NCBI GenBank assembly: GCA_003576915.1
Contig: QEVF01000003.1
Span: forward strand, 113,737-177,736
Source: Planctomycetota bacterium
GTDB taxonomy: Bacteria > Planctomycetota > UBA8742 > UBA2392
Length of the DNA: 64,000 nt
Reading direction: 5' to 3'
Shown here: positions 41,571 through 55,863 of the stretch, one piece after another
Numbering within the stretch: the first letter of the stretch is position 1
How the letters are laid out: each line of letters starts with the position of its first letter
The notes under the pieces: model-generated
The model's input: the letters and a program-made list of their open reading frames with translations, nothing else
Database searches by the model: none
What the model was told of the DNA's origin: nothing
Program-made: the position numbers and the translations under genes

Positions 41571-41832
41571 GGCGCAAGCCTAGCAACGCGGGCCGCATGC
41601 ATTCAACCTCGCCGCCAGATTGTCGCCCGCGGCTCCGGCCGGGCCCGCGCATGGCCCGCTCGCCGGTCTTTTGCGGGGTCTAACGTGCCCGTACCAAGAG
41701 GGGGCGCGACGCCTTCCCCCGCGCGCAGTGCCAGTCGGGCCTCCCAAGCAGACGTGCAATGTCCCTGGCCCACGGCACAGACGACCGTGAAAGGAGAGCC
41801 GGCGAGTCCAACAAGGGCCGCCCGTCTAAGCC

Positions 41833-41861
41833 TTGACACCGGCGCCTTGTCACCCGAAACT
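41833..41861 (+). promoter_or_regulatory. sigma-70-like promoter candidate for the GT2/acyltransferase operon
   Basis: TTGACA at 41833, then 17 nt, then gaaact. Weak -10. Confidence 0.25.
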
Positions 41862-41898
41862 TACAGGTTCGGCAGTGGGGCTACTGAAAGGCGCAGCT

Positions 41899-43316
41899 TG
41901 AACGGCAAATCCATTCCTGCCGCGAGCGGGTACTGCTTCGTCATACCCACCTACAACAACCGCACCACGGTGACGGATGTCGTGCGGCGCGCGCTGGCCC
42001 TGGCCCAGACGGTCATCGTCGTTGACGACGGCTGCAGCGACGGCACCGCCGAACTCCTGGGGGATCTTCCCATTGTGCTGGTGCGCCACCGGCGCAATTT
42101 CGGCAAGGGCGTGGCCTTGCGCAGCGGTTTTGCCAAGGCCCTGGAGCTCGGCTACACCCACGCCCTTACGATGGACAGCGACGCCCAGCATTATCCTGAA
42201 GAGGCGCCCAAACTGATCGCCGCCAGCCGCGCCAGCCCCGACGCCATCGTGATTGGCGTGCGGGACATGACGGGCGTGCACGTGCCGTCCATTTCGACCT
42301 TCGGGCGCCAGTTCAGCAACTTCTGGATGAAACTGGCCACGGGCGTGGACGCCGGAGACACCCAGTCCGGGTTTCGCATTTATCCGCTGCGGCACGTCAC
42401 GCGGCTTTTCTGCTTCTCCCGCCGTTTCACCTTTGAGTGCGAGCTGCTTGTGCGCGCGGCATGGGGCGGCTGCCCCATCGTCACGGTGCCGGTGCGGGTC
42501 CACTATCCGCCGAAGTCCGAGCGTGTGTCTCATTTCAATCCCGTATGGGACAACGTGCGCTACTTCTTCCTTTACAACTATCTCAACTTCCGGCACCTGC
42601 TCGTGCCCCTGCCTCACCGACGCCTCGTCGCTTGCAGAGATCCGCTCTGGGCGGGCAGCATCGGCGCCACGCTCAAGAACGGGGCGCGGCGCCTGCGCGC
42701 CATGGCCGCGTTGCCGGAGAAGGCACAACTGCGCGGCGGCCCCCTGGCGCGCATGAAGCAGCTCCTGGCCTATCTGGTACATGAGAAGAACTCGCCCGGC
42801 GAGCTGGGCATGGCCGTGGGCATTGGTGCATTTATCGGATGCACTCCTCTGATCGGGGTGCAGTGGCTGTTCGCCCTGTACGCCGGCACGCGCATGCACC
42901 TGAACCGCGTTGCCACCGTCGCGGCGACCAACGTCAGTTTCGGGCCCCTGACGGCAGTGATTGCCGTGGCCTCGGTTCTGCTGGGCAAGTTCCTGCTCGG
43001 CAACCACAGCTACTTCCCTCGCACGCTGGAGTGGGCCATTCTGTGGCCCCACCTCAAGGCAAGTCTCGGCGCCTGGGTTCTGGGCAGCTCGATCATCGGC
43101 CTGGTCATGGCCTTCGTGATGGGCCTCTCCACCCTCTATGGGATCCGCGCCCTGAGGAGGCGCAAGCAGGCGCTGGAAGCGGCGGCGCCGCGTCGCGCGG
43201 CTGTAGATTCGGCTCCTGAACTCACGCCCGCGCATGGCCTGCAAAGTGCGGAAATCCATGCGGCACTCGACGCCCAGGAGGCCCGGGGCAAGACCGTTGA
43301 GGCCCCGGCGCTATGA
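41899..43316 (+). CDS. family-2 glycosyltransferase fused to DUF2062 membrane domain
   Basis: TTG start after AAAGG. GT2 motifs CFVIPTYNN, VVDDGCSDGT and DSDAQH. DUF2062-like C-terminus GMAVGIGAFIGCTPLIGVQWLFALY. Confidence 0.75.
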
Positions 43317-44245
43317 GCGGTGAAGCGCCGTTGAGAGGCTCGCGGCCCTGGGACGGTCGCACACGCAGCGGCCTGGGCATTCGCCTGATGTTCTGGCTGT
43401 TCCGTGTTTGCGGCCCGGTGTTTGCCTACTCCCTGCTGTACCCGGTGGTCTTCTACTATATGTGCGTGGCCTGGAGGCATGGGGCCGCCAGCCGCGACTA
43501 CCTGCGGCGGCTGTATCCGACGGCAACGGCCCTTCGCCTGCTGTGGCTGACCTACCGCCACTTCCTGAGCTTTGGCCGCGTGCTGCTGGATCGCGCCTAC
43601 GCTTTTACAGGCGCGCTTGGAACCTTTCACTTCGAGCGGGTGAACTCGGAGTCGATCACGGAGGCCCTGAAGGAGGGCAAGGGCCTGATTCTCATCTCCG
43701 CCCACATGGGAAACTGGGAGCTGGCGGCGCACGGTCTGGGCAGCCTGGGCGTCACAGCCCCGGCGGTGCCCATCAATCTCGTCTGGTTTCGCAATGAGGG
43801 CCAGCGCGCCCAGCAGCACCTGGAAAAAGTGACACAGGGCCAGCCATTCAACATCATTGACTCCTCCGACCCCCTGGCCGCCAGCATCGAAATGGTCGCC
43901 GCGCTCAAACGCGGCGAGATCGTGGCCATTCACGGAGATCGGGTGGTGGGCAGCGGCACGGTCAAGGCGCCGTTTCTGGGTGCCGAAGCTGAGTTTCCCA
44001 GCGGTCCCTATGTCGTGGCGGCGAACACAGGGGCGCCCGTGGTGTTTGTGTTCTGTAATCGACTGGGCCACAAGCGCTACCGGGTGACGGCCGTGGGGCC
44101 CAGGAGCTTTGCCTTCACTTCAAGACGGGAACGCGAGGCCAACTTGAGGCAGTGGGCGGGCGAATATGCGTTAATCCTGGAGCAGCAACTGCGTGAGTTT
44201 CCCTTGCAGTGGCACAATTTCTATCGGTTCTGGGGGGCGCCGTAG
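43313..44245 (+). CDS. lysophospholipid / lipid A late acyltransferase (LpxL/HtrB family)
   Basis: ATG overlaps the GT2 stop (ATGA). H-X4-E/D block LISAHMGNWELAAH. Confidence 0.75.
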   Translation: MSGEAPLRGSRPWDGRTRSGLGIRLMFWLFRVCGPVFAYSLLYPVVFYYMCVAWRHGAASRDYLRRLYPTATALRLLWLTYRHFLSFGRVLLDRAYAFTGALGTFHFERVNSESITEALKEGKGLILISAHMGNWELAAHGLGSLGVTAPAVPINLVWFRNEGQRAQQHLEKVTQGQPFNIIDSSDPLAASIEMVAALKRGEIVAIHGDRVVGSGTVKAPFLGAEAEFPSGPYVVAANTGAPVVFVFCNRLGHKRYRVTAVGPRSFAFTSRREREANLRQWAGEYALILEQQLREFPLQWHNFYRFWGAP

Positions 44246-44386
44246 ACCGCACGAAGAGGTAGCTTCACGCTCGTGTCATGGCGCCTTGCTTTGTGTAAGA
44301 GTTTGGGTTGCCATGGCGTTGTGACCTTGTAGCATTGATTCTCCCCTTTCGGTGACGGACATCCCCTGTGCAGGGAGTGCAGTTCC

Positions 44387-47300
44387 ATGCCCACGACAAG
44401 AGCGTGTTTGCTGAGTTTCGCGTTTGGGCTCATGGCGGTGCTGCTTGCGGGCTGCGGTCCGGGGTTGCTGGCACTGGCAGGCGGCTCCGGCGGCGGCATC
44501 TTTGCGTTTGCGGGCAACAAGAAGGACAAGGATGGCGGGCCCGCTCCCTCTACCAACTCTCCGCCCGTGGTGGTGATCAACTCCCTGACCCGCGAAGATG
44601 CGCCCGCGAGCATCAACTACACGTTGATCGACGCCAACTCCGACCTGTGCAGTGTGCAGGTGACCTGGTCGCGCGACGGCATCAACTTTTTTCCGTGTAC
44701 CCAGGGCGTGGGCGGTGACCCGGTGACGTTCCTGAACTCCGGTCCCAGTGGGTCAGCCAAGGTGTTCAAGTGGGACTATGAAATTGACCTGCTGACCACG
44801 GAGCTGGAGACGGGTCTGCACATCGCCATTGTGGCCAACGACGGGGCGGGCCCCGGGCCGGTGGCATCCCTCGGCGGGCTGGTGGCGGGCAATGATGCCC
44901 CCGTGGTGAACCAGACGACTTCACCGCAATCGCCGGATGTTCTGGTCACGGGCAGTCTGGTGCTGGTGACGTTCAATATCCGCGATTCCAGCGCAGACGT
45001 GGCGGGCATGGTCGTCGCCTTCACGCTGGATCAGGGTCAGACCTTTACGGAACTTGCGACGGGCGATTTCGTCGGCACTCCGCCCACGGCGTTGCTGACC
45101 ACGCCCCTGGGCGCTGCGGGCCAGTTCATCTGGAATTCGAGTGTGGCCCTGCCGGGCTTTGCGGGCTCGGATGTCTATCTGGCGTTGATTCCCGTGGATC
45201 GGCCTTCGGGCTGGACGGACTTCACGGTAGGCGACCCGGTGTTCGTGGGCCCCATCACGCTCAATAACGTCCAGAACGGGCCGCCGGAGCTGACGCTGGT
45301 TTCCAGCGTGGCCGGCGATTCCTTTGTCGGCAAGGTGCCCCTGCAATTCACATTAAGCGACAGCGGCAGCGACAGTGCTGAAGTCGCCGTGGAATACACC
45401 ATCGACGGAACCAACTGGCTGCCCGCGCGCCTCACAGGCCAGGCCACGACGCAGCCGGCGGGTCCCTTTGTCTGCTCGCCCAATCCGCGCCTTTACTCGC
45501 TGGAGTGGAATGGACTGGCGGACCTGGCAGCCCAGGGTGCCAAGAACGTGGAGTTGCGACTGACGCCCGTGGAGCTGGGGTCTTCGCCCGCCGTCTACGG
45601 CACCACGATTTACACGGGCACGTTCAGCTTTGCGGACAACGAGGCGCCGGAGGTCAGCGACTTCGAGGTGTACCAGAATTCCGGCAACATCTCCGTGCGC
45701 ATCCAGATCAAGGACAGCAGCAGCGACGAAGTCTCCTGCGCCATTACGGCGACCTGGAACGGCGGCTCCAGCAGCGTGATACTGAGCAATTCTGATTTCG
45801 TCGTGGGCAACCTGGGCCAGATGAGCTCTGGAGTGTCCGGAGAGGACAACATCCTGATCTGGAACTCCAACATCGCCCTGCCCCTGACCAACGCTGCAGA
45901 CGTCGTCTGGGAGATCACGCCCACGGATAACCCCCAGGGTTTCCCCGCGGCGGCCCTGCCGGGCCCCACCTACTTCTCGGCCAGCTTTTCCGTGATCAAC
46001 AACCCCGCAGCCGCGACGCCGGCGGGCATCACGCTCGTGGAGGACAACGGCCGCGTCACGGTGAATGTCTCGCAGACGCGCAACTTCACAGCCACCATCC
46101 TGCCTGCGGCGGCCGCCGACCACACCGTAACCTGGGACATCGTGGAGGGCGGCGGCAACGGCAGCATTGTGCCCGTTTCCAGCCCCCTGCAGGGCCCGCA
46201 AACGGCGCTTTACACGGCCCCGGCGACACTGGCCCTGAGCAACCCGAATTTCTGCACGGTGCGAGCCACCAGCACCGTGACCGGAGCCGTCACGGCCACG
46301 TGGCGGCTGTACTGGGGCGATGCCCCGAGCAGCGTGAACGTGACGCCAACGCCCGTCGATGTCGTGGCCGGCCTCACCCAGCAGTTCACTGCCTCGGTGG
46401 CACCCGCAGGCGCCCCGCAGCAGGTCAACTGGTCTGTGGTGGGCGGGTCAGCCAACGGCACCATCACCCAGGGCGGACTATACACGGCGCCTACCACACT
46501 GCCGGCGGTCAAACAGATCAACGTGCGTGCCACAAGTGTTGATGGCGCGGTTTTCGGATCGGCGGTGGTCAATCTCAAACCCAGCCCCGTCTCGCTGCTG
46601 GTGACGGAGAGCGTAGGCTCCAGTCAGGGTCCCTCGCAGGTGACGCTGGGGCAAAGCCTCAGCCTGATGGCGACCGTCAACCCGCCGGACGCACCCCAAC
46701 AGGTCTACTGGACCATCGACTGGAACGGCGTGAACCAGGGTTCGGGCAATTCCACAGTGGGATTCGTCAATGCCTCGGGCCTCTATTCTTCGCCCTCGGC
46801 CTTGCCCTCGCCCAGTCAGGTTTTCGTACGGGCGCGCAGCCAGGTGGTTTCCAGTGTGACTGACGACTACCAGATCAACCTTGTGGCCCCGCCGCCCACC
46901 AGCTTCCAGGTGTCGCCCGCTACGGCCATCGTCACGGCGGGCGGCGCCGGCGTTGACTTTGATGCAGTCAACTTCGTGCCGGCCAACGCCAACCAATCCG
47001 TAATCTGGACCATCAACCCGGTCTTCGGAAGCATTGACAGCGCTTCGGGCGTCTATACGCCGCCCCCGAGCGCGGCATCCAGCCAGAACGTCACGGTCAC
47101 GGCCACGAGTTCCGTGGCAGGAACCGTTACTGCCACCGCCGTTGTGACCGTCAACCCCAGCACGGGAACTTTGCCCAGCAGCCTGACCATCTCGCCCAAT
47201 GAAGGGCGAACTTTCGTGCAGGGCCGCGTCCTGATTTTCACGGCCACGGTGCTGCCCGCCGGCGCCTCCCAATCCGTCAACTGGTCGGTGGTAAGCGGAG

Positions 47301-49405
47301 GAGGCACGATTGACAGCTCCGGGCGCTACACGCCGCCGACGACCGGTCAATCGGATTCCACCGTGGTGATACGCGCAACCAGCACCGTGGTTCCCTCCGT
47401 GTTCAACACGGCAACCATTGACCTCGACGGCATGGGCAACGTGGGCACCTTCCGCAGTGACATCTCCATGGCCCGCAGCGAACCTTCCGTGGCCTATGAC
47501 GCCTCAAACAACCGTGTCTTCGTCATGGGCGGTCTAAGCGAGATGAGCAACTCCACGGGCAAGCACGACGACCTGTGCTTCATCTACAACCCGGTGGGCG
47601 GCACGTTTACGACCCTGCCCCGCATCAACGCCGCACTGTCCACCAACACGATCAGCATGGTGTTTGACAACCCGCGCAAGCTGCTGTTCGCTTTCGTGGG
47701 CAACGGCACCAACAATGTGGGCGTCTTTTCGCTCGATACCCTGGCCGCTACTCCGGCGTGGACGGCCCTTTCGCCGGGCGGCAGCGGCGGGAACACGCCC
47801 AAGTTGAGCCAGACCTTCCGCTACCTCTGCTTCCACGATGAGCCCAGTAACGAAATCCGTGTCTGCGCGGGCGACACCATCTTCCGCCTCGACATTACGA
47901 CTCCCGCCGCGCCTACCTGGCTCACCCGCCAGACGAGCGTGACCGGCACCCCCAGCGCCCCCCAGACCGAAAAATGCGCTTACTACTACAACCCCGGCTC
48001 CGGCAAGCATTGCCTGGTGGGCACGTCCGGGACCAACACGGTCGTGTGGCAGCTCAACACGACTGTCAGCCCCTGGAACTGGGACTCCGTCACCACGCTG
48101 GGAACCGCGCCCACCGGCGGCCTCGATGACGCCAGTGCCGCCTTTGACGCGCCCAACAACCGCCTGCTGGTATTCGGCGGGCGCTCGCCCGGCGGCCTCT
48201 TCAGCAACGAGTTGCGCATCCTGGATTTCAATGTCGCTCCGCCCACCTGGGCTCTTCCGGCCATCGCCCTGGAGCGCACCCCGGACTCTCGCGGAGATGC
48301 CGCGCTGATTGTCGCCGGAAGCCAGCTTGTGATGTTCGGAGGCCGCAATCTGGTGGGCAACTTCGGCGATCTCTGGCAGTCAACGACGAATACTCTGAGC
48401 TGGCTGCAACCCAGCCCCACGGGCCTGGTGCCGCAGGGTCGGCGCAACGCCGCCTGTGTCTGGATCGAGTCCCTGAACTGGGGCTACGTTTACGGCGGCA
48501 TCTGCGACCATGGTGTCAGTGACGAACTCTGGCGCGTGCGCTTTGATGCTTTCGGAGCCGGCGTGCTCTGGGAGGTTGTCAATCCGTCTTCGAGCGCGGC
48601 AACTTTGCCCGGACAGCTTCAGGGCGCCTCGCTGGTGTTCAACGGAGCCACCAATCGCATCGTGCTGTTCGGCGGCAACAAGGCGTCCACGGGCCAAGGC
48701 CTGCTGCAGAACTCCGTCTACCAGTTCAATCCGACGACGCGCACCTGGGCGCTGGCCTCGGCCACGGGCACGCCCCCCACACCTCGCATGGGTCACTGTG
48801 CCTGCTTTGACGAAAGCAATGACCGCATGATCGTGTTCGGTGGCTATGACAACACGGCCAATCCGTACACGGGCAGCATCCACTACCTGAATCTGAGCGG
48901 CGCACCCGCCTGGGTCACGCCCACGGTGACCGGCAGCATTGACGGTCGTGCCGGGGCCTTCTGCGGCATCAGCGACGACAAGTCCCGCATGTACGTTCTG
49001 GGTGGCGCCACCCAGGCCGCGCAGGGCGGCACGCTGCAGCTCTATGAGTGGGTCTTCGGGGGCATAGCATCAGGCACTTGGACGGCCCTGGCCACCCATG
49101 CGCCCGCCACGCCCAAGGGCATCTTCCCCGGCGCCGGCGCCTTTGATCCCGACGGAGGCCGCTTCCTGACGGCGCCGCCGGCCCAGTTCGACAATCAGGC
49201 CTTGGTCTTCTGCAGCCCGGCCATCACTCCGCCCGCGGGCATCACCTGGCAATCGCTGACCATCGGAGGAGTCCAGCATGGCCTGGGCGCCTGCGGCATG
49301 TTCGACCCGGCCAACAAACGCTTCTACGCCATCGGCGGCGAGTATGACCTCGGCGCCGGCAAGACACGCAAGCTCAATCAGGTCCGCATCGTGAGGTTCG
49401 ACTAA
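44387..49405 (+). CDS. giant lipoprotein (1672 aa) with multiple Ig-like (BIG2-type) domains and C-terminal Kelch-type beta-propeller
   Basis: Lipobox LMAVLLAGCGPG. Repeated units of the form ...ATVLPAGASQSVNWSVVSGGGTIDSSGRYTPP. Kelch-like blades NRVFVMGG, NRLLVFGGR, NRIVLFGGN, DRMIVFGGYD, SRMYVLGG, KRFYAIGGEYD. Confidence 0.8.
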   Translation: MPTTRACLLSFAFGLMAVLLAGCGPGLLALAGGSGGGIFAFAGNKKDKDGGPAPSTNSPPVVVINSLTREDAPASINYTLIDANSDLCSVQVTWSRDGINFFPCTQGVGGDPVTFLNSGPSGSAKVFKWDYEIDLLTTELETGLHIAIVANDGAGPGPVASLGGLVAGNDAPVVNQTTSPQSPDVLVTGSLVLVTFNIRDSSADVAGMVVAFTLDQGQTFTELATGDFVGTPPTALLTTPLGAAGQFIWNSSVALPGFAGSDVYLALIPVDRPSGWTDFTVGDPVFVGPITLNNVQNGPPELTLVSSVAGDSFVGKVPLQFTLSDSGSDSAEVAVEYTIDGTNWLPARLTGQATTQPAGPFVCSPNPRLYSLEWNGLADLAAQGAKNVELRLTPVELGSSPAVYGTTIYTGTFSFADNEAPEVSDFEVYQNSGNISVRIQIKDSSSDEVSCAITATWNGGSSSVILSNSDFVVGNLGQMSSGVSGEDNILIWNSNIALPLTNAADVVWEITPTDNPQGFPAAALPGPTYFSASFSVINNPAAATPAGITLVEDNGRVTVNVSQTRNFTATILPAAAADHTVTWDIVEGGGNGSIVPVSSPLQGPQTALYTAPATLALSNPNFCTVRATSTVTGAVTATWRLYWGDAPSSVNVTPTPVDVVAGLTQQFTASVAPAGAPQQVNWSVVGGSANGTITQGGLYTAPTTLPAVKQINVRATSVDGAVFGSAVVNLKPSPVSLLVTESVGSSQGPSQVTLGQSLSLMATVNPPDAPQQVYWTIDWNGVNQGSGNSTVGFVNASGLYSSPSALPSPSQVFVRARSQVVSSVTDDYQINLVAPPPTSFQVSPATAIVTAGGAGVDFDAVNFVPANANQSVIWTINPVFGSIDSASGVYTPPPSAASSQNVTVTATSSVAGTVTATAVVTVNPSTGTLPSSLTISPNEGRTFVQGRVLIFTATVLPAGASQSVNWSVVSGGGTIDSSGRYTPPTTGQSDSTVVIRATSTVVPSVFNTATIDLDGMGNVGTFRSDISMARSEPSVAYDASNNRVFVMGGLSEMSNSTGKHDDLCFIYNPVGGTFTTLPRINAALSTNTISMVFDNPRKLLFAFVGNGTNNVGVFSLDTLAATPAWTALSPGGSGGNTPKLSQTFRYLCFHDEPSNEIRVCAGDTIFRLDITTPAAPTWLTRQTSVTGTPSAPQTEKCAYYYNPGSGKHCLVGTSGTNTVVWQLNTTVSPWNWDSVTTLGTAPTGGLDDASAAFDAPNNRLLVFGGRSPGGLFSNELRILDFNVAPPTWALPAIALERTPDSRGDAALIVAGSQLVMFGGRNLVGNFGDLWQSTTNTLSWLQPSPTGLVPQGRRNAACVWIESLNWGYVYGGICDHGVSDELWRVRFDAFGAGVLWEVVNPSSSAATLPGQLQGASLVFNGATNRIVLFGGNKASTGQGLLQNSVYQFNPTTRTWALASATGTPPTPRMGHCACFDESNDRMIVFGGYDNTANPYTGSIHYLNLSGAPAWVTPTVTGSIDGRAGAFCGISDDKSRMYVLGGATQAAQGGTLQLYEWVFGGIASGTWTALATHAPATPKGIFPGAGAFDPDGGRFLTAPPAQFDNQALVFCSPAITPPAGITWQSLTIGGVQHGLGACGMFDPANKRFYAIGGEYDLGAGKTRKLNQVRIVRFD

Positions 49406-49408
49406 GGC

Positions 49409-52400
49409 ATGGGCAACGCCGACCCGCTTGATGTCCTGTTCCTTTCCCGCGCCCAGGAGCGCCGGCTGCTGACTTCCGCCCAGGCCGCTTCCCTGCGCCA
49501 GGAGTTGGCCCTGCGCCGCCGCGTCGATCCTGACCTCGGTGTCCATGAACTTGCCGTCGAGCGCGGCTACATGGATGTCACCACCGCCATGCAGTTGCTC
49601 AACGCCAGGCCCAGCGACACGGTGGCCGACCTGAGGCAGCGTGCGGGCGAACCCACGGCGCTGGCGCCCGAGGATGAGCGCTTTGACGAAGTGCCTCGTC
49701 TGGTGGAGCCGCTGCCAAGCGGCATGCCTCCGAAGAAGGCGGGCCCGCGCAAGTCGAGCGACGAATCGCACCTGGAAATGGAGTTGCCCCCGCCAACGAG
49801 CCAGAGCGGCGATTCCCTGTTTGAGGATGGGTCAAACCCCGGTCTTGCGCCGCTGCCGGTGACGCCCAGGCCCGAGCCCATCCCCGAGTTGACGAGCTCG
49901 CCAGTGCTCGTGGAGCGTACCCCCAGCCAGTGGGATGATCTGGGTTCGACAAATCTGGGACTTGAAACCGCCAGCCAGGGACCCGCCCCGGGGGACCTCG
50001 CGCCTGAGGAGAATCTCGAGCCCATGCAGGTCAGCCCCCTGGCCGAGGATCAGCGCCTGGGCGGCAGCGGCGACACCCTGGTGGACTTTGACGAGTCGGC
50101 CAGCGAACTGGAGCCCCAGACCCAGTCCATGCCCGACCTCGCGCGCCAGCCCCTGCCCGCGATCGAGGACGAGCCCAAGGCTCCGCCGACGCCTTCCTCG
50201 GCACTCAACGACAGCGCTGTGCGTGACGTCATGCGCGACGCCGATGATGGCTATTTCGGTCAACCGGCCGATCTCACCCGGCCGGCCTTTTCCGACGCCG
50301 TGCTGGCGGGTGCAAAGATTGAGGAAGTCACGCTGTTTGACTCCGAAAAGGACGTGGCCAAGAGCGCCCCGGAAGACGATCCTTCGGCCACAGTGACCGA
50401 TTTCGGCAGGACGCGAGCGCCCGGCAGGAATTCCGTCCCGCCTGCATCCAAGTCGCCGTCGAAGGCGCCCGTGATCACGGAAGTCAAAGACGACTCCGAC
50501 GCGGATTTCGGCGTGACCCTGGCTGGTGACACAATCGCACCCACGGACCTCAAGACCGTCTACGATGACTCCGAGCCCGGCATCGACGATGAAGTCACGG
50601 GCGAAATCACCAACGAACCCAGCACCGGCTCGCGCACCAGCGGCATGAGCACGGCCATGGCGACGGGGGAAGTGGGCGGACGCAAGCGCAACAAGGTCGG
50701 CGTCGAGAGCAACATCACCGACGACCAGAACCTGGCGGGCGAACAGATCTCGGCCTCCCAGGTCACCCTGGCACAGATGCGTGAGAAGATGGGCCTGGGT
50801 GAAGGCGTGAAGATCGCCGATGGCCAGGACACCGCCATGCGCGTGGTCAAGCGCCTCAAGCAGGGCGGCGGTTCCTACAAGCGCTATACCGTGATCCGCG
50901 AAATCGCCCGAGGCGGCATGGGCAAGGTGCTGGAAGTCGAAGACAACGACCTGCGCCGCAGCGTCGCCCTCAAAGTGCTGCGAAAGGAAATGCTCGGACG
51001 CAAGGACCTCGTGGAGCGCTTCCTCGAAGAGGCCCAGATCACCGGCCAGCTCGAACACCCCAACATCGTGCCCGTGCATGAAATCGGCGTGGACGGGCGC
51101 GGCAACCTCTACTTCACCATGAAGCTGGTGGAGGGTGAGGAACTCAGCTCGGTGCTCAAGCGTCTGCGGCAGGGCGACGCCAATGCGGCGCGCAGCTATC
51201 CGCTTTCGCGGCTGGTGGAGATCTTCATCAAGCTGTGTGAAGGCCTGGCCTTTGCCCACTCGCGCGGCGTGATTCACCGCGACCTCAAGCCCGCCAACAT
51301 CATGGTGGGTCGCTTTGGCGAGGTGCAGATCATGGACTGGGGCGTGTCCAAGATTGTGGGCACGCGCGAGGAAACGGCCGAACGCACCGTGGCGAGCGAC
51401 CGGCGGGACGCCCACGCCGGGACCACCATGGTCGGCGCCATCCTCGGCACGCCCACCTACATGTCGCCCGAGCAGGCCCGCGGCGAAACCGACACGCTGG
51501 ACGTGCAGAGCGACATTTTCTCGCTGGGCGTGATCCTGTACGAGATCCTCTGCCTCAAGCTGCCCTGGACGGGCAAGAACTCCGAGGAAATCCTCGATCA
51601 GGTCCGCGAGTACGACCCCGAGCCGCCCTCGAGGCGCGCTCAGGACCGCGCCATTCCCCAGGAACTGGAACAGTTGGCCATGCGTTGCCTGAACAAGGAC
51701 CCGCGCGCCCGCATCCAGAGTACCCAGGACCTGATCGAAAACCTGCGCTCGTGGCAGGAAGGCAAAACGCTCTCGGCCGTCGAATACACCATGGGCCAGC
51801 TTGTCCGCAAATGGCTGGCGCGTCACCGCAAGGCCGTGTTTGCGGGTTCGGCCATCGTGCTCGCGCTCATAGGCGGCATCGTGGCCACGGTGGTCGTGCT
51901 GCGGCAGGCCCGCCTGGCCGATGTGCCCTTTAAGTTGAAGACCGGCGAAACACTGCTGGTCGAGGCGGCCACGGCAAGAGAGGCCGGGCAGTTCGCTGCC
52001 GCGTCCGACAAGGCCATCAAGGCTCAGAGCGAGTTTGAGGCGGTGCTCCAGCTCGTCGATGGCGACGAGCGCGCCCGCGAGGGACGCCAGAACGCCAGCC
52101 TCGAACAGGCCCGCGTGCAGGCCGCCCAGGAGCAGGCCGCGCGCGACGCAGCCCAGAAGGAAAAGGAAGCCGAGCGCCAGAAGAGCCTGGCCGACGCCCT
52201 GAAGAAGGCGCGGGCCAGTTGTGAATCCGCCGACCTCGCACTTAGGGAAGCTCAGGACCGCAACCGGCCGGCCGATGACACCATCCGCGGTCAGTACACC
52301 GCGGCGCTGCAGGACCTTCTGGCCGTTCTGGCCATTGACCCCGGCAACAAGGAAGCGGGCGACGAGAAGCTGCGCGTCGAAAAGTGGCTGGCGGACTACG

Positions 52401-53986
52401 AAGCCGGTCGAGAGCGCCACCGCCAGTTCAAAGACCTTGGCGACAAACTCGTCGAGCTGCGCGCCCGCGTGCAGGCCGCCCGGGCCCTGCTGGTCAAGGC
52501 TGACCAGTTCGATGCGGCCAAGAACCCCGTGCTCGAGGTGATCCGCCTCTCAGATCTGGCCCTGGCGGTGCCCCTCTCCGATGAGCAGGCGGCCAAGCTC
52601 AAGGCAGAAGCCGCGGGCGCCAAGGCGGACGTGACGCTGGAGTACGCCCGCCAGGCCCTCTCCCAGGAGCCGCCCAAGTTCGAGGTCTGCGACCTCATGC
52701 TCAGCATCGCCGAAATCACCGGCCAGCGCGCCGACCAGGTCAAGAAACTGCGCGCCGACTTCACAGAGAAGGAGGCCGCCTTCTCCGGCTTCCAGCGCCT
52801 GCTGAAGACGGCCGAAGACGCCGTGGGCTCCTCAAGCTGGACCATCGCCGTGGAGTACGTGGCCAAGGCCATGAAGGAAGCCGAGGCCAGCAAGTACGCC
52901 ACGGCGCGCGACAAGGCGCGGCTCGCCCAACTTTGGCAGTTTGCAAACCTCGAGGAAATCCACGCGCGCGAGGCGACAGCCACCACCAGTGATCAGGTGG
53001 AGGCCATTTTGGGTGCCTACGAGAAGCTCTATCGCGAGACGATCAAGGACCCCGACTACGTCCAGCGCGCTGAGGGTTACATCGCGGCTATCCGCTCGCG
53101 CCTGGGCGTCGTGCTGCTCGAGGAATCGCGCGGCGCCGAAGACGCGGTGGCCGTCGACTACCTCAAACGCGCCCTGATCTACCTGGTTGAAAAGGCGCAC
53201 CGCGCCGAGGCCCAGGGGCGCCTCGATGAAATCACGGCGCGCAAGGCCCTGGCCGACCTTTCGGATCGCCTGGTGATTCTGCCGCGCGGAAGCTTCATCG
53301 TGGGTTCTTTGCGCGACTCCGACAAGAACCGCCAGCGCACCGTGGAGCAGCAGAAGATTCTGTTCATGGATCGCGTGCCCGTTACCAACGCCGAGTACCT
53401 CAAGTTCGTCGCGGAGGACGGCTACAGCCAGCCCGGATTCTGGGACGAAGAAGCTCTGCCCCTGCTCAAGCACTTCGTGGACACGACGGGCAAACCGGGC
53501 CCCAAGGGCTGGGTCAAGGGCGGTTTTGACCCGAGCCAGGCCAACTTGCCGGTCACGGGTGTGAGCTGGTACGAAGCGCGCGCCTACGCCCGCTGGGCCA
53601 AAAAACGCCTGCCCACGCCCGACGAATGGGAAATCGCAGCCGGCGCCCCGAACGCCAACCAGCCCTCCGACCAGGGCGACTATCCCTTCGGCAAGCGCGA
53701 AGACGCTCCGCTCGTCGGCGTGCCGCGCCTGCGCGAAGTGGGCACGGCAGAATGGGCCAAGAACGCCCTGGGCGTGTACGACCTGGGCTGCAACTGTGCC
53801 GAGTGGACTGACGGCGCCTTCAGTCCCGGTCGTGCCGTGGTCAAGGGAGCTGAAACCGGCCTGAGGCCCGATCTGTTCCTGGGCTATGCCCGCCGCGCCA
53901 AGAACAGTTCGGCGCAACTGGCAGACCGTTCGTCGGGGCGCGGCTTCCGCTGCGTGCAGGAGTATCAGCCGAAGAAGGACGGGTAA
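49409..53986 (+). CDS. Ser/Thr protein kinase (1525 aa) with acidic disordered linker, TM helix and C-terminal FGE-sulfatase (formylglycine-generating enzyme-like) domain
   Basis: Kinase GxGxxG RGGMGKV, catalytic HRDLKPANIMV, DWG in place of DFG, APE-type SPEQ. TM AVFAGSAIVLALIGGIVATVVVL. FGE-like RGSFIVGS...VTNAEYLKFV...VTGVSWYEARAYARWAKKRLPTPDEWE...GVYDLGCNCAEWT. Confidence 0.85.
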   Translation: MGNADPLDVLFLSRAQERRLLTSAQAASLRQELALRRRVDPDLGVHELAVERGYMDVTTAMQLLNARPSDTVADLRQRAGEPTALAPEDERFDEVPRLVEPLPSGMPPKKAGPRKSSDESHLEMELPPPTSQSGDSLFEDGSNPGLAPLPVTPRPEPIPELTSSPVLVERTPSQWDDLGSTNLGLETASQGPAPGDLAPEENLEPMQVSPLAEDQRLGGSGDTLVDFDESASELEPQTQSMPDLARQPLPAIEDEPKAPPTPSSALNDSAVRDVMRDADDGYFGQPADLTRPAFSDAVLAGAKIEEVTLFDSEKDVAKSAPEDDPSATVTDFGRTRAPGRNSVPPASKSPSKAPVITEVKDDSDADFGVTLAGDTIAPTDLKTVYDDSEPGIDDEVTGEITNEPSTGSRTSGMSTAMATGEVGGRKRNKVGVESNITDDQNLAGEQISASQVTLAQMREKMGLGEGVKIADGQDTAMRVVKRLKQGGGSYKRYTVIREIARGGMGKVLEVEDNDLRRSVALKVLRKEMLGRKDLVERFLEEAQITGQLEHPNIVPVHEIGVDGRGNLYFTMKLVEGEELSSVLKRLRQGDANAARSYPLSRLVEIFIKLCEGLAFAHSRGVIHRDLKPANIMVGRFGEVQIMDWGVSKIVGTREETAERTVASDRRDAHAGTTMVGAILGTPTYMSPEQARGETDTLDVQSDIFSLGVILYEILCLKLPWTGKNSEEILDQVREYDPEPPSRRAQDRAIPQELEQLAMRCLNKDPRARIQSTQDLIENLRSWQEGKTLSAVEYTMGQLVRKWLARHRKAVFAGSAIVLALIGGIVATVVVLRQARLADVPFKLKTGETLLVEAATAREAGQFAAASDKAIKAQSEFEAVLQLVDGDERAREGRQNASLEQARVQAAQEQAARDAAQKEKEAERQKSLADALKKARASCESADLALREAQDRNRPADDTIRGQYTAALQDLLAVLAIDPGNKEAGDEKLRVEKWLADYEAGRERHRQFKDLGDKLVELRARVQAARALLVKADQFDAAKNPVLEVIRLSDLALAVPLSDEQAAKLKAEAAGAKADVTLEYARQALSQEPPKFEVCDLMLSIAEITGQRADQVKKLRADFTEKEAAFSGFQRLLKTAEDAVGSSSWTIAVEYVAKAMKEAEASKYATARDKARLAQLWQFANLEEIHAREATATTSDQVEAILGAYEKLYRETIKDPDYVQRAEGYIAAIRSRLGVVLLEESRGAEDAVAVDYLKRALIYLVEKAHRAEAQGRLDEITARKALADLSDRLVILPRGSFIVGSLRDSDKNRQRTVEQQKILFMDRVPVTNAEYLKFVAEDGYSQPGFWDEEALPLLKHFVDTTGKPGPKGWVKGGFDPSQANLPVTGVSWYEARAYARWAKKRLPTPDEWEIAAGAPNANQPSDQGDYPFGKREDAPLVGVPRLREVGTAEWAKNALGVYDLGCNCAEWTDGAFSPGRAVVKGAETGLRPDLFLGYARRAKNSSAQLADRSSGRGFRCVQEYQPKKDG

Positions 53987-55803
53987 TGAGGAACTGGACT
54001 TCGCCCCGGGAGCCATCGGGGGCGTCAGGTGGCACATACATGGAACCAGCCCGAACACAGCGGACCGCTTCAGCGTTGCCTGGCTTCAAGGGTGGCCCGC
54101 CCAGGGGGCTCTTGGGCCCTTGCCACATCTCAACACAGGCAGCTGCCGGCGGGCGCGTTGCCCGATCCGTCGCGCTTTGGGTGCTGATGGTCGTGGCGCT
54201 TGCCTGCACGGCCTGTTCGACCATCGAGACGCCCAACCTCGAGGAGGACGTCAAGAACGAGAAGATCGTGCCCGCGGGCTGGCAGCCCCTGGGCCTGCGC
54301 GTCGGTCTTGCTCCCTGTGTGCTGGAGCTGGAGCTCAATCCTGAAAAGACCAATGTTGAAGACACCAAGCGCTGGGTGCTCGCCCCTACGCCTGAGCAGC
54401 TCAACGGGCAGGCGGGCATCCACAAACGCCTGCTTGATGTGCTGGTGAAGTACCGCATGTTCGAGCGTATCGAGCCCCTGGAAGGCGCCCGCCCCAACTC
54501 CACGCCTGAAGAGCTGCGCCGCCTCGCCCTCGCGCAGGGGCTGGATGTCGTCATGCAGCCTTCCGTGCGCCGCCACGACGTCGGCTACATCGAGAGCAAC
54601 GGCGCCTACGCCTGGAACATGTTCATCTGGTGGATGATGAGCCCCGTCTTCACGTGGTGGATCGCGGATGAGGACTTTGACGTCAACGTGCACATCGACC
54701 TGCGACTCTTCCCCACCTCCACGGGCAATCTCGCCTTGGGCAAGCGCCTGGCGCCCAAGGAGACCCTGGTGCGCAGCCTTGACGACTTCGATCACGGCTT
54801 CAACGCCCTCTCCATCTTCAGCACCCCCGGCTACATGGGCGAAAGCAACTGGGTCAAGGTCGGATCCAAAATGATCCCCATCGGCGAGTGTGCCGCGCAC
54901 AAACAGGCCCTGCGCTTCGTCACGCAGGACCTCGCCCGCAAACTCGAAGATCCCGATTTTCTGGGCGACTTGCGCCGCCGCGCCGGGGTCATTGTCGGCG
55001 TGGACTCGCAGGGCCGGCCCGGCCTGCCCATGACGCGCTATGCCGAGGCCGATGCCGTGGCACTTTCTCGCTTTGCCCTCTCGGCCACGCGCCGGCCCTT
55101 GACGGAGGGCGCCGTCACCACACTCACGGGCGCTGCCGCCACACGCGCCGCCGTGATTGAGGCCATCGGCAAGGTCACGCCTCTGGCGCGCGGCAACGAT
55201 GAGTTCTTCCTCATGTTCTGCGGCACAGGCACCTTGACCCAGGACGGCCGCCTGGGCGTGGCTTTGGCCCAGCCGCCGGTCACGGCGGCCGATACGCCAC
55301 TCGAAATCACGCCCCTGATCGAGCTGGTGGACGCCGCTCTGGAAGAGCGTCCCCGCACCCTGGTGCTGTATCTGGATTGTTCTTTTCTGGCGCGGGGAGA
55401 TTCGCGCTGCGCCGTGACGGACGCACTCCTGGCCAAGTTGCCGGCGAGGGCGGAGAATGAGAAACCACGATCGTTGCTGGCCCCGATCTTCCAGCTCTGC
55501 GCCGAGCGTGGAACGCGCCTGGTTTTGCTGAGCGCCACGGGCGCGCAGGTGGGCCTGCCGGCGGCGGAGCGCGCCCTGGAAATGGAGGAACTCGGCAGCG
55601 GCCTGTTCACGGCCTATGTGCTGGAGGCGCTGTCGGGCAAGGCCGACGCGAACAAGGACCGTGATGTCAGCGTCGATGAACTCACGGCTTATGTTCAGGC
55701 CAAGGTCGGCCAGATCGCGGATCTGGAGGGGGTCCACCAGAAGCCCTTCATTTACACCGACGACGACCGCAAATCCTACGAGCTCCCAAGCGGCAAGAAG
55801 TAG
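53986..55803 (+). CDS. membrane-anchored caspase-like (peptidase C14-fold) domain protein, probable pseudo-protease
   Basis: ATG overlaps the kinase stop (TAATG). Hydrophobic anchor VALWVLMVVALACTAC. Caspase-fold blocks GVIVGVDSQ, DEFFLMFCGTGT (His replaced), LVLYLDCSF, and the distal GSGLFTAYVLEALSGKADANKDRDVSVDELTAYVQAKV. Confidence 0.55.
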   Translation: MRNWTSPREPSGASGGTYMEPARTQRTASALPGFKGGPPRGLLGPCHISTQAAAGGRVARSVALWVLMVVALACTACSTIETPNLEEDVKNEKIVPAGWQPLGLRVGLAPCVLELELNPEKTNVEDTKRWVLAPTPEQLNGQAGIHKRLLDVLVKYRMFERIEPLEGARPNSTPEELRRLALAQGLDVVMQPSVRRHDVGYIESNGAYAWNMFIWWMMSPVFTWWIADEDFDVNVHIDLRLFPTSTGNLALGKRLAPKETLVRSLDDFDHGFNALSIFSTPGYMGESNWVKVGSKMIPIGECAAHKQALRFVTQDLARKLEDPDFLGDLRRRAGVIVGVDSQGRPGLPMTRYAEADAVALSRFALSATRRPLTEGAVTTLTGAAATRAAVIEAIGKVTPLARGNDEFFLMFCGTGTLTQDGRLGVALAQPPVTAADTPLEITPLIELVDAALEERPRTLVLYLDCSFLARGDSRCAVTDALLAKLPARAENEKPRSLLAPIFQLCAERGTRLVLLSATGAQVGLPAAERALEMEELGSGLFTAYVLEALSGKADANKDRDVSVDELTAYVQAKVGQIADLEGVHQKPFIYTDDDRKSYELPSGKK

Positions 55804-55828
55804 GCCCCGGGGAAAACTTTTCCGTCGA

Positions 55829-55863
55829 GGCGCACCGGATTTCCCGGTGCGCCGTCCTTTTTC
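55829..55863 (+). terminator. Rho-independent terminator after the kinase/caspase-like operon
   Basis: ggcgcaccgg-atttc-ccggtgcgcc followed by gtcctttttc. Confidence 0.65.

Follow-up and report, generated by a model that had tools for sequence, protein, structure and literature searches.

What can a receptor-type Ser/Thr kinase, carrying an FGE-sulfatase domain on the far side of the membrane, have to do with a caspase homologue that has lost its catalytic residues? The two are encoded by adjacent genes in the stretch of DNA analyzed here, 64,000 nucleotides of a Planctomycetota contig (QEVF01000003.1), hereafter called the window. Three puzzles meet at this locus: the role of pseudo-caspases, that of non-enzymatic FGE-sulfatase domains attached to kinases and caspases, and the nature of the signals sensed by the receptor-type Ser/Thr kinases of Planctomycetota. 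Each type of component was already known beforehand. Pseudo-orthocaspases are a recognised class (PMC6426788), FGE/FGS domains are regarded as non-enzymatic binders (PMC7159879), and CLec/FGE domains are found grafted onto STK or orthocaspase domains (PMC7517822). The kinase-TM-FGE architecture is common in Planctomycetota (PMC11032199) and also appears in the bacterial STK atlas (bioRxiv 10.1101/2025.01.12.632604).

An earlier note on this DNA proposed a two-gene operon encoding a signalling or cell-fate module. Our main finding is that the kinase and the caspase-like protein are paired even in very distant bacteria; this suggests an envelope sensing complex that is as yet uncharacterised, rather than a cell-death module. 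On balance, and taking the whole explanation jointly, we lean towards reading window positions 44387-55863 as an operon of three genes that together encode an extracytoplasmic sensing complex.

Layout of the locus

The open reading frames of the kinase and of the caspase-like protein were found at the positions previously given for them. The unit does not start at the kinase, as had been proposed; it consists of three genes, the first of which begins at 44387.

44308-44335, + strand: possible operon promoter, sigma-70-like (TTGCCA-16-TAGCAT, 9/12 match; weak)
44387-49405, + strand: giant predicted lipoprotein, 1672 aa, with Ig-like/Big_2 repeats and Kelch beta-propellers (Pfam, lipobox)
49409-53986, + strand: receptor-type Ser/Thr kinase, 1525 aa, whole ORF with stop (ORF, Pfam)
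53986-55803, + strand: caspase-like ORF
55829-55863, + strand: intrinsic-terminator-like hairpin and T-tract, operon end (fold calculation)

The promoter match sits in the 141-nt gap 5' of the Kelch gene, and sigma-70-like sites are no more numerous than expected from shuffled sequence. The product of the first gene matches Pfam Kelch families (E 6e-48) plus Big_2, and its N-terminus, MPTTRACLLSFAFGLMAVLLAGC, contains a lipobox. Its stop codon lies 3 nt ahead of the kinase ATG, and a Kelch gene stands 5' of the kinase in every close-family locus with enough flank. This giant had been overlooked in the earlier note; compared with the PADLOC models, it gave no match. At the other end, the strong hairpin described previously is indeed terminator-like: a 10-bp stem (9 G-C), a 5-nt loop, then a T-tract, with a folding z of -3.2. 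The start of flgF, at ~55925, is beyond it.

In the window's lineage the operon is flanked by envelope-biogenesis genes and by a flagellar rod/ring operon. A link to that downstream operon, together with the LPHT-ring fold match described below, was considered and rejected, because the adjacency is confined to the window's immediate lineage. Scans of the entire window for Rfam families and tRNAs gave no matches.

The third gene encodes a predicted lipoprotein

53986-54156, + strand: poorly conserved leader between kinase stop and signal peptide, coding uncertain (family comparison)
54157-54216, + strand: signal-peptide hydrophobic core and lipobox, to invariant Cys77, codon 54214-54216 (alignment, model)
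54217-54975, + strand: N-terminal lipoprotein domain, residues 78-330, unannotated in Pfam (Foldseek, motif conservation)
54976-55800, + strand: pseudo-caspase (diverged Peptidase_C14), residues 331-605 (Foldseek, profile-profile alignment)

The kinase stop TAA (53984-53986) shares a base with an ATG (53986-53988), and the resulting TAATG had been interpreted as translational coupling. The overlap is present, and start/stop overlaps of 4-23 nt occur in about ten relatives; the L006 junction reads TAGTG. The start itself is doubtful, judging from the comparison of relatives, and coupling is uncertain in this lineage. No conservation is seen within the family over the 57 residues that follow the TAATG, which are modelled with a pLDDT of 30-35, and even a relative 96% identical in the mature protein has a diverged leader with a 57-nt indel. 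Alternative starts for the lipoprotein are ATG 54040 and TTG 54112.

Downstream of the leader, the lipobox (...LACTAC, followed by S) ends in a cysteine, Cys77, that is found in 26/26 close members and in 117/132 distant relatives, and the structure model places a helix (residues 55-75) at the signal peptide. Because of the signal peptide and the invariant lipobox cysteine, the pseudo-caspase is predicted to be an exported lipoprotein; if so, it would share the extracytoplasmic side of the membrane with the kinase's FGE ectodomain, across from the cytoplasmic kinase domain.

Between lipobox and caspase domain lies a region (residues 78-330) with no match in a Pfam scan. Foldseek relates it, at low TM-scores and E-values of 7e-5 to 1e-3, to CsgG, HpaA, PelC, XCC0632 and an LPHT-ring chain. 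The most conserved motifs of the superfamily, a W-rich segment ending in ADE and DDFDHGF, belong to this domain, and the cluster names of the sequences looked up read 'hypothetical protein' only. Both the export signal and the N-terminal domain had escaped the earlier note.

Kinase and lipoprotein genes form an ancient pair

The second and third genes of the operon are an ancient, tightly linked pair. Every close locus with sufficient flank has the triad, its gene order unchanged. In distant loci, which were retrieved through lipoprotein motifs only (metagenome scan, alignment A4), kinase-FGE and pseudo-caspase lipoprotein genes are adjacent in 18 of the 22 informative cases: 12 have a Pkinase+FGE gene directly upstream, and in 6 the contig ends within an upstream FGE gene. 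Among the others, one has an NHL giant between the FGE gene and the lipoprotein gene, and three are without an FGE neighbour. The pair lies on the same strand, often overlapping, in organisms with 45-77% GC, and its adjacency survives deep divergence, the lipoproteins being ~25-30% and the kinase domains ~29% identical while all other neighbours change. The neighbourhood survey thus documents the pairing well beyond the clade, and bears out the earlier view of the kinase and the caspase-like protein as a genuine functional unit.

Two MAGs hold two complete cassettes each, Bin_91R (L006, L018) and SJ383 (L005, L019), and every duplicated cassette keeps its own kinase, lipoprotein and Kelch copy, which is consistent with cognate pairs. 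A giant beta-propeller protein is a recurrent accessory, Kelch here and NHL elsewhere; L032 and L035 both have NHL-propeller giants beside the pair. The conserved block contains no gene for an effector, NTPase, DGR or toxin. In a partial-Mantel mirror-tree analysis, all extracytoplasmic parts correlated highly with one another; we discounted this, as rate and saturation effects suffice to produce such correlations in fast-evolving domains.

Linkage could also reflect co-transcription without physical partnership, the lipoprotein being an independent structural protein of the envelope (for example ring-forming, like CsgG or PelC) and the kinase sensing something else. The fold matches of the N-terminal domain are oligomeric outer-membrane lipoproteins, the lipoprotein has no FGE neighbour in 3/22 distant loci, and the position of the operon between envelope-biogenesis and flagellar genes in this lineage would suit such a role. 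We nevertheless hold this to be unlikely: adjacency outlasts very deep divergence while the other neighbours change, the genes frequently overlap, duplicated cassettes retain their own copies of all three genes, and fusions of C14 with FGE domains exist elsewhere (PMC3501461).

A receptor kinase with a non-enzymatic FGE ectodomain

49409-49633, + strand: N-terminal four-helix module, residues 1-75, cytoplasmic (alignment A2, AF2 model)
49634-50848, + strand: acidic Pro/Ser-rich linker, residues 76-480 (composition, net charge -41)
50885-51727, + strand: Hanks-type kinase domain, residues 493-773 (Pfam Pkinase, E 3.7e-45)
51836-51907, + strand: single TM helix, residues ~810-833 (hydropathy scan)
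51908-53266, + strand: extracytoplasmic helical stalk, residues 834-1286 (Ala/Glu/Leu/Arg-rich composition)
53267-53956, + strand: FGE-sulfatase (C-type-lectin-fold) ectodomain, residues 1287-1516, without the FGE catalytic Cys pair (Pfam, E 1e-29)

The Pkinase plus FGE-sulfatase architecture is common to the orthologues P0188-P0206 (41-96% identity), and HMM scans recovered both domains previously assigned to the window protein. PF00069 scores 154.8 bits against a cut-off of 31.7, and the positions of the catalytic Lys, HRD Asp, DFG Asp and APE are filled (VALK, HRDLKPAN, DWG and SPE intact); by profile and motifs, this is a Hanks-type Ser/Thr protein kinase. The kinase domain is 62-99% identical among close loci. 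Ahead of it, the ~400-aa acidic disordered linker of the earlier description is confirmed as a segment rich in P/D/S/E, within which three short islands are nearly invariant (alignment A6).

The sole hydrophobic segment of the protein is the TM helix reported before; RKWLARHRK stands just ahead of it. Since this single helix is C-terminal to a kinase domain that requires ATP, the stalk and the FGE domain should be outside, and the same placement was concluded for planctomycetal STKs (PMC11032199). The stalk evolves fast, with ~29-57% identity among close loci outside the near-identical L001/L002/L006 (96%), and its layout recurs in the distant L029 kinase. Its coiled-coil character is putative, as read from its composition.

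The proteins of that survey, single-pass STKs with a periplasmic sulfatase-modifying-factor (FGE) domain, share with the window protein the kinase, the one TM helix and the extracytoplasmic FGE domain. Unlike them, the window subfamily adds a conserved four-helix N-module, the 400-residue linker with its short motifs and a stalk of ~450 residues, and its obligate genomic partner, the pseudo-caspase lipoprotein, is absent from the descriptions given in those surveys.

PF03781 matches the ectodomain with 104.4 bits (cut-off 23.3), and its sequence relatives in the PDB are OvsA, EgtB, SUMF2, SUMF1 and PorK, the C-terminal half being best matched by the inactive SUMF2/pFGE. The copper-binding catalytic cysteines of FGE lie, as we take it from human FGE, in a C-terminal loop. 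In the window protein the aligned loop, KGAETGLRPDLFLGYARR, has no cysteine, and those of the domain are at residues 1461, 1463 and 1515 only. The ectodomain would therefore have the FGE fold without being a true FGE, the catalytic Cys pair being absent. A precedent for such a use of the fold is PorK/GldK of the type IX secretion ring, a sequence relative in which a non-enzymatic FGE-fold domain serves as a periplasmic structural or binding module. Unlike the window kinase, PorK is itself a lipoprotein and pairs with PorN; there are no T9SS genes here, and the NCBIfam GldK match is weak (E 1.9e-10, far below the cut-off).

Could the FGE-like domain still be an enzyme, with the lipoprotein as its substrate, oxidising for instance the Arg474-Cys475 site or another Cys or Ser? 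True oxidases with the FGE fold (FGE, the EgtB/OvoA family) are its top sequence relatives in the PDB, and Arg474-Cys475 is invariant in the close family, near the former active-site loop of the caspase domain. Such an enzyme-substrate couple is improbable, given the missing catalytic cysteines and the resemblance to inactive SUMF2, the absence of the DinB iron domain needed for EgtB-type chemistry, the difference between RC(A) and the CxPxR recognition motif of FGE, and the fact that Cys475 is not visible in the consensus of the distant relatives.

The N-terminal module and the case for a cell-fate module

The four-helix N-module is kept in all cassettes (alignment A2). A structure prediction built on database orthologues (AF2, pLDDT 82.6) has helices at residues 6-17, 23-36, 45-52 and 57-65. 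The module had been likened to c-di-GMP binders of the MshEN/T2SE_Nter type, and this found no support. T2SE_Nter gave no Pfam match at E<=10 in the window protein and 15 orthologues, the family profile found nothing in the PDB at E<=10, and the MshEN motif, that is, two copies of RLGxx(L/V/I)(L/V/I)xxG(L/V/I)(L/V/I)xxxxLxxxLxxQ separated by a 5-residue spacer (PMC5013675), is matched at best at 4-5/11 positions in every orthologue, as in shuffled sequence. The top TM-score, 0.62 to PilF GSPII-A, comes with E 6.8 and a probability of 0.33, a non-significant fold resemblance. The window module may share with MshEN/GSPII (PMC5013675, PMC12002112) a small N-terminal four-helix arrangement, made up of two helix-turn-helix halves with a Gly at the turn; the two differ in that the window module has no profile match and no RLG...Q motif, a spacer of ~10 residues between its halves instead of 5, and no evident alpha/beta MshEN_C subdomain. 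An RsiG-like Pfam match in 1 of 15 N-modules was taken as chance.

This weighs on the reading of the locus as an intracellular kinase and pseudo-caspase module for programmed death, cell fate or anti-phage abortive infection, with c-di-GMP as input through the N-domain. That reading has points in its favour: the caspase homology is real, predicted conflict systems contain caspase, FGE and kinase domains together (PMC7159879, PMC10907252), the PADLOC defence-kinase models PD-T4-6 and mad6 match the kinase domain, the PADLOC 'caspase' model weakly matches the lipoprotein (E 1.6e-4, residues 355-418 only), and a GSPII domain gives the N-module its top TM-score. The PADLOC kinase matches, however, cover essentially the generic kinase domain (mostly ~490-790, a few to ~940), so that a known anti-phage system, to which there is no full-length match, was rejected. 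The motif and profile of MshEN are absent, and the nearest GSPII structure does not itself bind c-di-GMP (PMC12002112). The pseudo-caspase is predicted to be exported, no close member has a catalytic dyad (see below), and the conserved block holds no associated effector. A cell-fate module in the programmed-death sense is thus decidedly improbable.

A caspase domain without its catalytic dyad

55225-55227, + strand: Thr414, at the catalytic His position (HMMER, hhalign)
55378-55380, + strand: Cys465, one residue ahead of the canonical Cys column (alignment)
55381-55383, + strand: Ser466, at the catalytic Cys position (hhalign)

The caspase fold claimed for the third protein is real, if very diverged. 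In the AF2 model of the lipoprotein (pLDDT 82.6), the domain adopts a predicted caspase-haemoglobinase alpha/beta fold with the canonical strand order, and its Foldseek matches are GSU0716, metacaspase 4 (AtMC4), MALT1 and Yca1 (E 4e-8 to 2e-6; to 1e-4 when Sf-caspase-1 is included). The match to PDB 3bij has an E of 0.008. PF00656 gives no Pfam match in the window lipoprotein even at E<=1; it is matched by 37/59 distant full-length relatives (best E 1e-36), and alignment by hhalign to relatives with an intact dyad (99.8%, E 2e-30) places Thr414 on the His and Ser466 on the Cys. Homology of the window protein to Peptidase_C14 is therefore transitive, through its distant relatives.

Both catalytic substitutions reported earlier stood up to this comparison. 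FCGTGT replaces S-G-H-G, and the His column, after strand beta-3, is never His in the 26 close members, which have Thr, Val, Ile, Leu, Met or Ala there; among the 132 distant relatives, 59 have Tyr, 13 Leu and 13 His. The Cys column, after strand beta-4 (D-x-C), holds Ser466 in the window protein, nearly invariant in the close family, and Ser (56), Gly (34), Ala (24) or Cys (6) in the distant relatives. The displaced cysteine of LDCSF, Cys465, occupies the 'x' of D-x-C. That the domain is a protease with a non-canonical nucleophile, Cys465 or Ser466, which processes the kinase ectodomain or the Kelch giant, is scarcely credible: both residues are at the end of strand beta-4, the nucleophile's place, and Cys465 is ~90% conserved in the close family, yet the His position has no His or other conserved general base (varied in the close family, mostly Tyr in distant members), two close members have Thr or Ser in place of Cys465, and most distant ones Ala or Thr, and Ser466 is Gly or Ala in 58/132 distant relatives.

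With a p20-type C14 domain that lacks the His-Cys dyad, the window protein classifies, on alignment grounds, as a pseudo-orthocaspase. It resembles the bacterial proteins of that class (PMC6426788) in its fold, in the substitution of both catalytic residues and in a presumed non-proteolytic role. It differs from them in that its clade has Thr/Val plus Ser, that it is a predicted lipoprotein with a large unannotated N-domain, that it is too diverged for PF00656, and that its pairing with a receptor kinase is strict. The pseudo-variants of the published survey are mostly from Alphaproteobacteria and Cyanobacteria, and a link to photosynthesis was proposed (PMC6426788).

A possible trans-envelope receptor

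How might such a pair work? The lipoprotein would partner the FGE ectodomain of the kinase in an extracytoplasmic sensory complex, an account that we judge somewhat more likely than not. The FGE domain, a C-type-lectin-fold binding module, and the lipoprotein would meet and bind in the extracytoplasmic compartment that they share, with the dead caspase, the N-domain or both serving as co-receptor or ligand-presenting subunit. A change in the contact between them, brought about by a ligand, the state of the envelope or input from the propeller giant, would pass through the stalk and the TM helix and switch the cytoplasmic kinase.

A direct link between C14 and FGE domains is supported by their recurrent fusion in single proteins elsewhere, a Rosetta-stone argument; 33/671 bacterial metacaspases are C14-FGE fusions (PMC3501461). 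In these bacterial and archaeal fusions (PMC3501461, PMC6426788, PMC7517822), the same two domain types are linked, and the FGE/CLec domain is C-terminal and thought to bind ligands rather than to generate formylglycine. The window differs in having two polypeptides from adjacent genes, with the FGE domain on the kinase and a C14 domain that is dead and predicted to be lipid-anchored.

The proposed logic would be akin to that of lipoprotein-to-inner-membrane-sensor pathways. In Enterobacteria, the RcsF/IgaA/RcsC and NlpE/CpxA systems rely on a lipid-anchored periplasmic protein whose contact with the periplasmic domain of a membrane signalling protein controls a cytoplasmic kinase. The likeness would be one of logic only: sequences and folds are unrelated, the window kinase is of Hanks type and not a histidine kinase, and the interaction at our locus is one that we infer.

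More tentatively, the kinase-FGE and the pseudo-caspase lipoprotein could be the two halves of a widespread, unrecognised trans-envelope receptor, in which the dead caspase or the W-rich N-domain is the obligate partner of the FGE domain; we regard this as possible, and short of probable.

Implications

The locus turns a vague co-occurrence of domains into a concrete two-protein hypothesis, that of a periplasmic FGE ectodomain and a dead-caspase lipoprotein, for which a large family of natural variants is at hand for comparison. A lipoprotein domain without annotation is defined as well, and the Pfam Peptidase_C14 model is shown to miss the window protein and its entire close family. If the broader proposal of a trans-envelope receptor is true, it would account in general terms for the repeated fusion or linkage of bacterial FGE-sulfatase domains with caspase as well as Ser/Thr-kinase domains, and the giant beta-propeller surface proteins, Kelch or NHL, would be interchangeable input modules.

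Organization of the operon

The earlier note paired a receptor-type Ser/Thr kinase with a downstream caspase-like pseudo-protease, and both reading frames were confirmed. They are the second and third genes of an operon that opens with a giant Kelch-propeller protein, a predicted lipoprotein, and the kinase ATG lies 3 nt beyond the stop of this giant's gene. The terminator-like hairpin claimed to follow the third gene is also present: it is the top site of its kind in the region, and it folds better than shuffled sequences (z = -3.2).

Features of the operon (positions in the window)
44387-49405: Kelch giant, 1672 aa; lipobox LLAGC, Big_2/Ig-like repeats, Kelch propellers
49409-53986, + strand: kinase, 1525 aa
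49760-49828: linker island 1, DESHLEMELPPP..SGDSLFED, kinase residues 118-140
50213-50278: linker island 2, SAVRDVMRDADDGYFGQPADLT, kinase residues 269-290
50663-50719: linker island 3, TGEV...VGVESNIT, kinase residues 419-437
53986-55803, + strand: pseudo-caspase lipoprotein, 605 aa
53986 (ATG), 54040 (ATG), 54112 (TTG): candidate lipoprotein starts
54601-54672: W-rich segment WNMFIWWMMSPVFTWWIADE, lipoprotein residues 206-229
54781-54801: DDFDHGF, lipoprotein residues 266-272
55645-55680: EF-hand-like loop, lipoprotein residues 554-565
55829-55853: terminator-like hairpin; 10-bp stem with 9 G-C pairs, 5-nt loop, then a T-tract

Only beyond the hairpin, at about 55925, does flgF start. It opens a flagellar rod/ring operon that runs to about 63349 with flgF, flgG and flgA, followed, by analogy with the related locus L001, by FlgH, FlgI, rod-binding, FlgN and FlgK homologues; its adjacency to the cassette is restricted to the window's immediate lineage (L001, L002 and L006). 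On the other side, a GT2 glycosyltransferase-DUF2062 fusion and a lipid-A-acyltransferase-like protein of the LpxL family are encoded with a 4-nt overlap at 41145-44245, and a 141-nt gap with a promoter-like site separates them from the Kelch gene. The LpxL-like gene is likewise found upstream in L005 and L006. The whole 64-kb window contains no tRNA gene and no Rfam family at the gathering threshold.

A receptor kinase with an FGE ectodomain

The domain layout proposed in the earlier note was largely borne out. Pfam places a Pkinase domain at residues 493-773 (E 3.7e-45) and an FGE-sulfatase domain at residues 1287-1516 (E 1e-29), and NCBIfam agrees through partial matches, PknD-like and EgtB/GldK-like, all far under equivalog cut-offs. 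The kinase motifs VALK, HRDLKPAN, DWG and SPE are all intact. Hydropathy reveals a single hydrophobic helix at residues ~810-833, preceded by RKWLARHRK and followed by an Ala/Glu/Leu/Arg-rich stalk. P, D, S and E abound in the linker at residues 76-480, whose net charge is -41. Three short, near-invariant islands stand out in this acidic, 'disordered' linker among orthologues at 36-93% identity; they resemble short linear docking motifs, here on the cytoplasmic part of the kinase. The combination of kinase, TM helix and periplasmic FGE domain is described as common in Planctomycetota (PMC11032199).

The N-terminal module (residues 1-75) is kept in every cassette, second copies included, and is predicted to form four helices (pLDDT 82.6). 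Its proposed role as an MshEN-type c-di-GMP-binding module found no support. T2SE_Nter matched neither the window nor 15 orthologues even at E<=10, a PDB search with the family profile found nothing, and Foldseek with the model returned no significant neighbours. One of the 15 aligned modules has an isolated, weak match (E 0.0014) to the RsiG-like family of Pfam, RsiG being a c-di-GMP-binding anti-sigma factor; no RsiG binding motif was seen in it by eye, and the match is probably due to chance. Of the 11 positions of the 24-residue MshEN motif (PMC5013675), only 4-5 are matched, exactly as in shuffled sequence. A remote kinship of fold with MshEN is possible.

The C-terminal half of the FGE domain aligns best with SUMF2/pFGE, the inactive paralogue of FGE. 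The loop KGAETGLRPDLFLGYARR, aligned with the loop bearing both catalytic cysteines in FGE, has no Cys; the only cysteines are residues 1461, 1463 and 1515. By these residues, the domain is predicted not to be a formylglycine-generating enzyme, and the proposal that it and the lipoprotein form an enzyme-substrate pair faces specific contrary evidence. Such FGE/FGS domains are regarded as binding modules of the C-type-lectin fold (PMC7159879, PMC10907252, PMC7517822).

A diverged caspase homologue devoid of its catalytic dyad

All sources annotate the lipoprotein as 'hypothetical protein', and neither Pfam nor NCBIfam matches it, even at E<=1. Weak direct signals for caspase homology converge on the same motif: PDB entry 3bij (GSU0716, a C14-fold protein) aligns FMLSYSGHGG over FFLMFCGTGT (E 0.008), the PADLOC 'caspase' model matches (E 1.6e-4), and the top PDB matches of the family profile are the yeast metacaspase Yca1 and 3bij (E ~0.2). 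The AlphaFold model built from 26 family members (pLDDT 82.6, pTM 0.75) has a caspase fold in its C-terminal half, matching GSU0716 (4e-8), Arabidopsis metacaspase 4, MALT1, Yca1 and Sf-caspase-1. An exhaustive profile search collected 21,376 cluster representatives at E<=1e-3, of which 3,581 reach E<=1e-10. Many are 500-560 aa long and aligned over almost their full length; Pfam Peptidase_C14 directly matches 37 of 59 near-full-length distant relatives (best E 1e-36). The downstream protein is a genuine, highly diverged caspase homologue.

The fate of the dyad was read from a profile-profile comparison with six of the top 150 relatives, namely those having His in the His column and Cys in the canonical Cys column (99.8% probability, E 2e-30). 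The alignment pairs NDEFFLMFCGTGTL with NDLVVFYFSGHGAQ and LYLDCSF with IILDSCY, so that Thr414 stands in place of the catalytic His and Ser466 in place of the catalytic Cys, with Cys465 one residue ahead of the canonical position. None of the 26 close members has His at the His position, and two of them carry Thr or Ser instead of Cys465. Across 132 distant representatives, Tyr (59), Leu (13) and His (13) occur in the His column, and Ser (56), Gly (34), Ala (24) and Cys (6) in the canonical Cys column. Exchange of His for Tyr together with Cys for Ser has been described as the pseudo-orthocaspase signature (PMC6426788). By these columns, the replacement of the catalytic residues is family-wide, and specific evidence speaks against reading the protein as a non-canonical protease. 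The pseudo-protease call stands because we found neither an intact dyad nor a lack of profile support.

One conserved loop of the domain, D-A-N-K-D-R-D-V-S-V-D-E within GxADxNxDxxVxxxEL, is EF-hand-like, and EF-hand_5 of Pfam matches 4 of 59 distant relatives; the loop may be a Ca2+ site kept in a dead caspase domain.

Predicted export and translational coupling of the lipoprotein

In every family member, a hydrophobic leader ends in a lipobox whose Cys is invariant; in the window ORF it is Cys77 (...LACTAC|S). Of 132 distant relatives, 117 also have Cys in this column. Accordingly, the mature protein is predicted to be exported and lipid-anchored; a cytoplasmic cell-death module faces specific contrary evidence. 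The best-conserved motifs of the superfamily, the W-rich segment and DDFDHGF, both belong to the N-domain and lie outside the pseudo-caspase. The former, for which the model has low confidence (pLDDT about 60), forms the tip of a long beta-hairpin and may serve to dip into the membrane or to bind a partner.

The last base of the kinase stop TAA (53984-53986) doubles as the first of an ATG, forming the TAATG from which translational coupling had been proposed. This overlap is real, but its use as the start is doubtful. The first 57 residues of the ORF are unconserved (pLDDT 30-35), the junction in L006 is TAGTG, and the leader stretch shows, against L001 and L006, numerous substitutions plus an indel of 57 nt, although the mature proteins are 96% identical. 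Val58 is excluded as a start because its codon is GTT. L001 and L006 share the AGGTGG that lies 7 nt upstream of ATG 54040. It belongs to a stretch of ~75 nt after the kinase stop (53987 to ~54060) that the window and these closest relatives have well conserved; from there to the signal peptide, the sequence is highly diverged and holds the indel. This pattern would fit a true start at ATG 54040 or at a codon further on, and it would also fit a small regulatory element. About ten other relatives have no more than 37-73 nt between the kinase stop and the Cys codon; in them, a start placed 19-22 codons ahead of the Cys gives an overlap of 4-23 nt with the 3' end of the kinase gene. Tight coupling is thus a family trait.

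Conservation of the gene pair

The order Kelch giant, kinase/TM/stalk/FGE, lipoprotein is found in all close-family loci with enough flank, in a set of about 20 distinct Planctomycetota MAG loci.

Identity to the window in close loci
Kinase domain: 62-99%
FGE domain: 50-96%
Stalk: about 29-57% (96% in the closest relatives)
Lipoprotein N-domain: 45-98%
Lipoprotein C-domain (pseudo-caspase): 36-94%

Two MAGs, Bin_91R (L006 and L018) and SJ383 (L005 and L019), each have two complete cassettes. The lipoproteins of the second cassettes, and of L004, share ~42-46% identity with those of L006 and L005, which points to an old duplication with retention of cognate sets.

Beyond this clade, the comparison took in 22 distant loci that were informative (GC 45-77%). 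Each had been selected solely by way of its lipoprotein, four through look-up of distant representatives and most through motifs in the protein sequence. A same-strand Pkinase + FGE gene lies immediately upstream of the lipoprotein gene in 12; the upstream FGE gene is interrupted by a contig end in 6; an NHL-propeller giant is inserted between the FGE gene and the lipoprotein gene in 1; and 3 have neither a kinase-FGE nor an FGE gene upstream. The distant L029 kinase, about 29% identical over the kinase domain, has the same layout of disordered N-terminus, kinase, TM helix, long helical region and FGE. NHL-repeat beta-propeller giants take the place of the Kelch giant at L032:1524-6722, between the FGE and lipoprotein genes, and at L035:512-3511 and L035:9081-12941, flanking the pair. 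Remaining neighbours vary (HEAT/VWA proteins, M24 peptidase). In two high-GC distant loci, the lipoprotein gene is closely followed by a long ORF (L045:8308-10338, L046:8293-10176) with two tandem kinase-domain matches. As the pair is kept while other neighbours vary, gene order identifies the kinase-FGE and lipoprotein genes as the conserved core, with the giant beta-propeller protein as a recurrent accessory. That the two proteins are co-transcribed yet independent faces specific contrary evidence.

A putative receptor complex

STK-FGE receptor kinases, pseudo-orthocaspases and C14-FGE associations are already known types of component. In the searchable literature and in the source annotations we found neither the conserved pairing of kinase-FGE and pseudo-caspase as adjacent genes, nor the lipoprotein nature of this pseudo-caspase family, nor its unannotated N-terminal domain.

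A direct link between FGE domain and lipoprotein is suggested by their genetic coupling and by known fusions of C14 and FGE in single proteins, found in 33 of 671 bacterial metacaspases (PMC3501461) and also reported elsewhere (PMC6426788, PMC7517822). The mirror-tree correlation of FGE and pseudo-caspase (partial r 0.77), confounded by evolutionary-rate class, is consistent with it. Beyond the established domain identities, catalytic-residue loss, export signals, single-pass topology and deep conservation of the pair, we propose that the FGE ectodomain and the lipoprotein would come together in the extracytoplasmic space as a receptor complex, which would control the cytoplasmic kinase through the stalk, and to which the propeller giant may provide an additional input.
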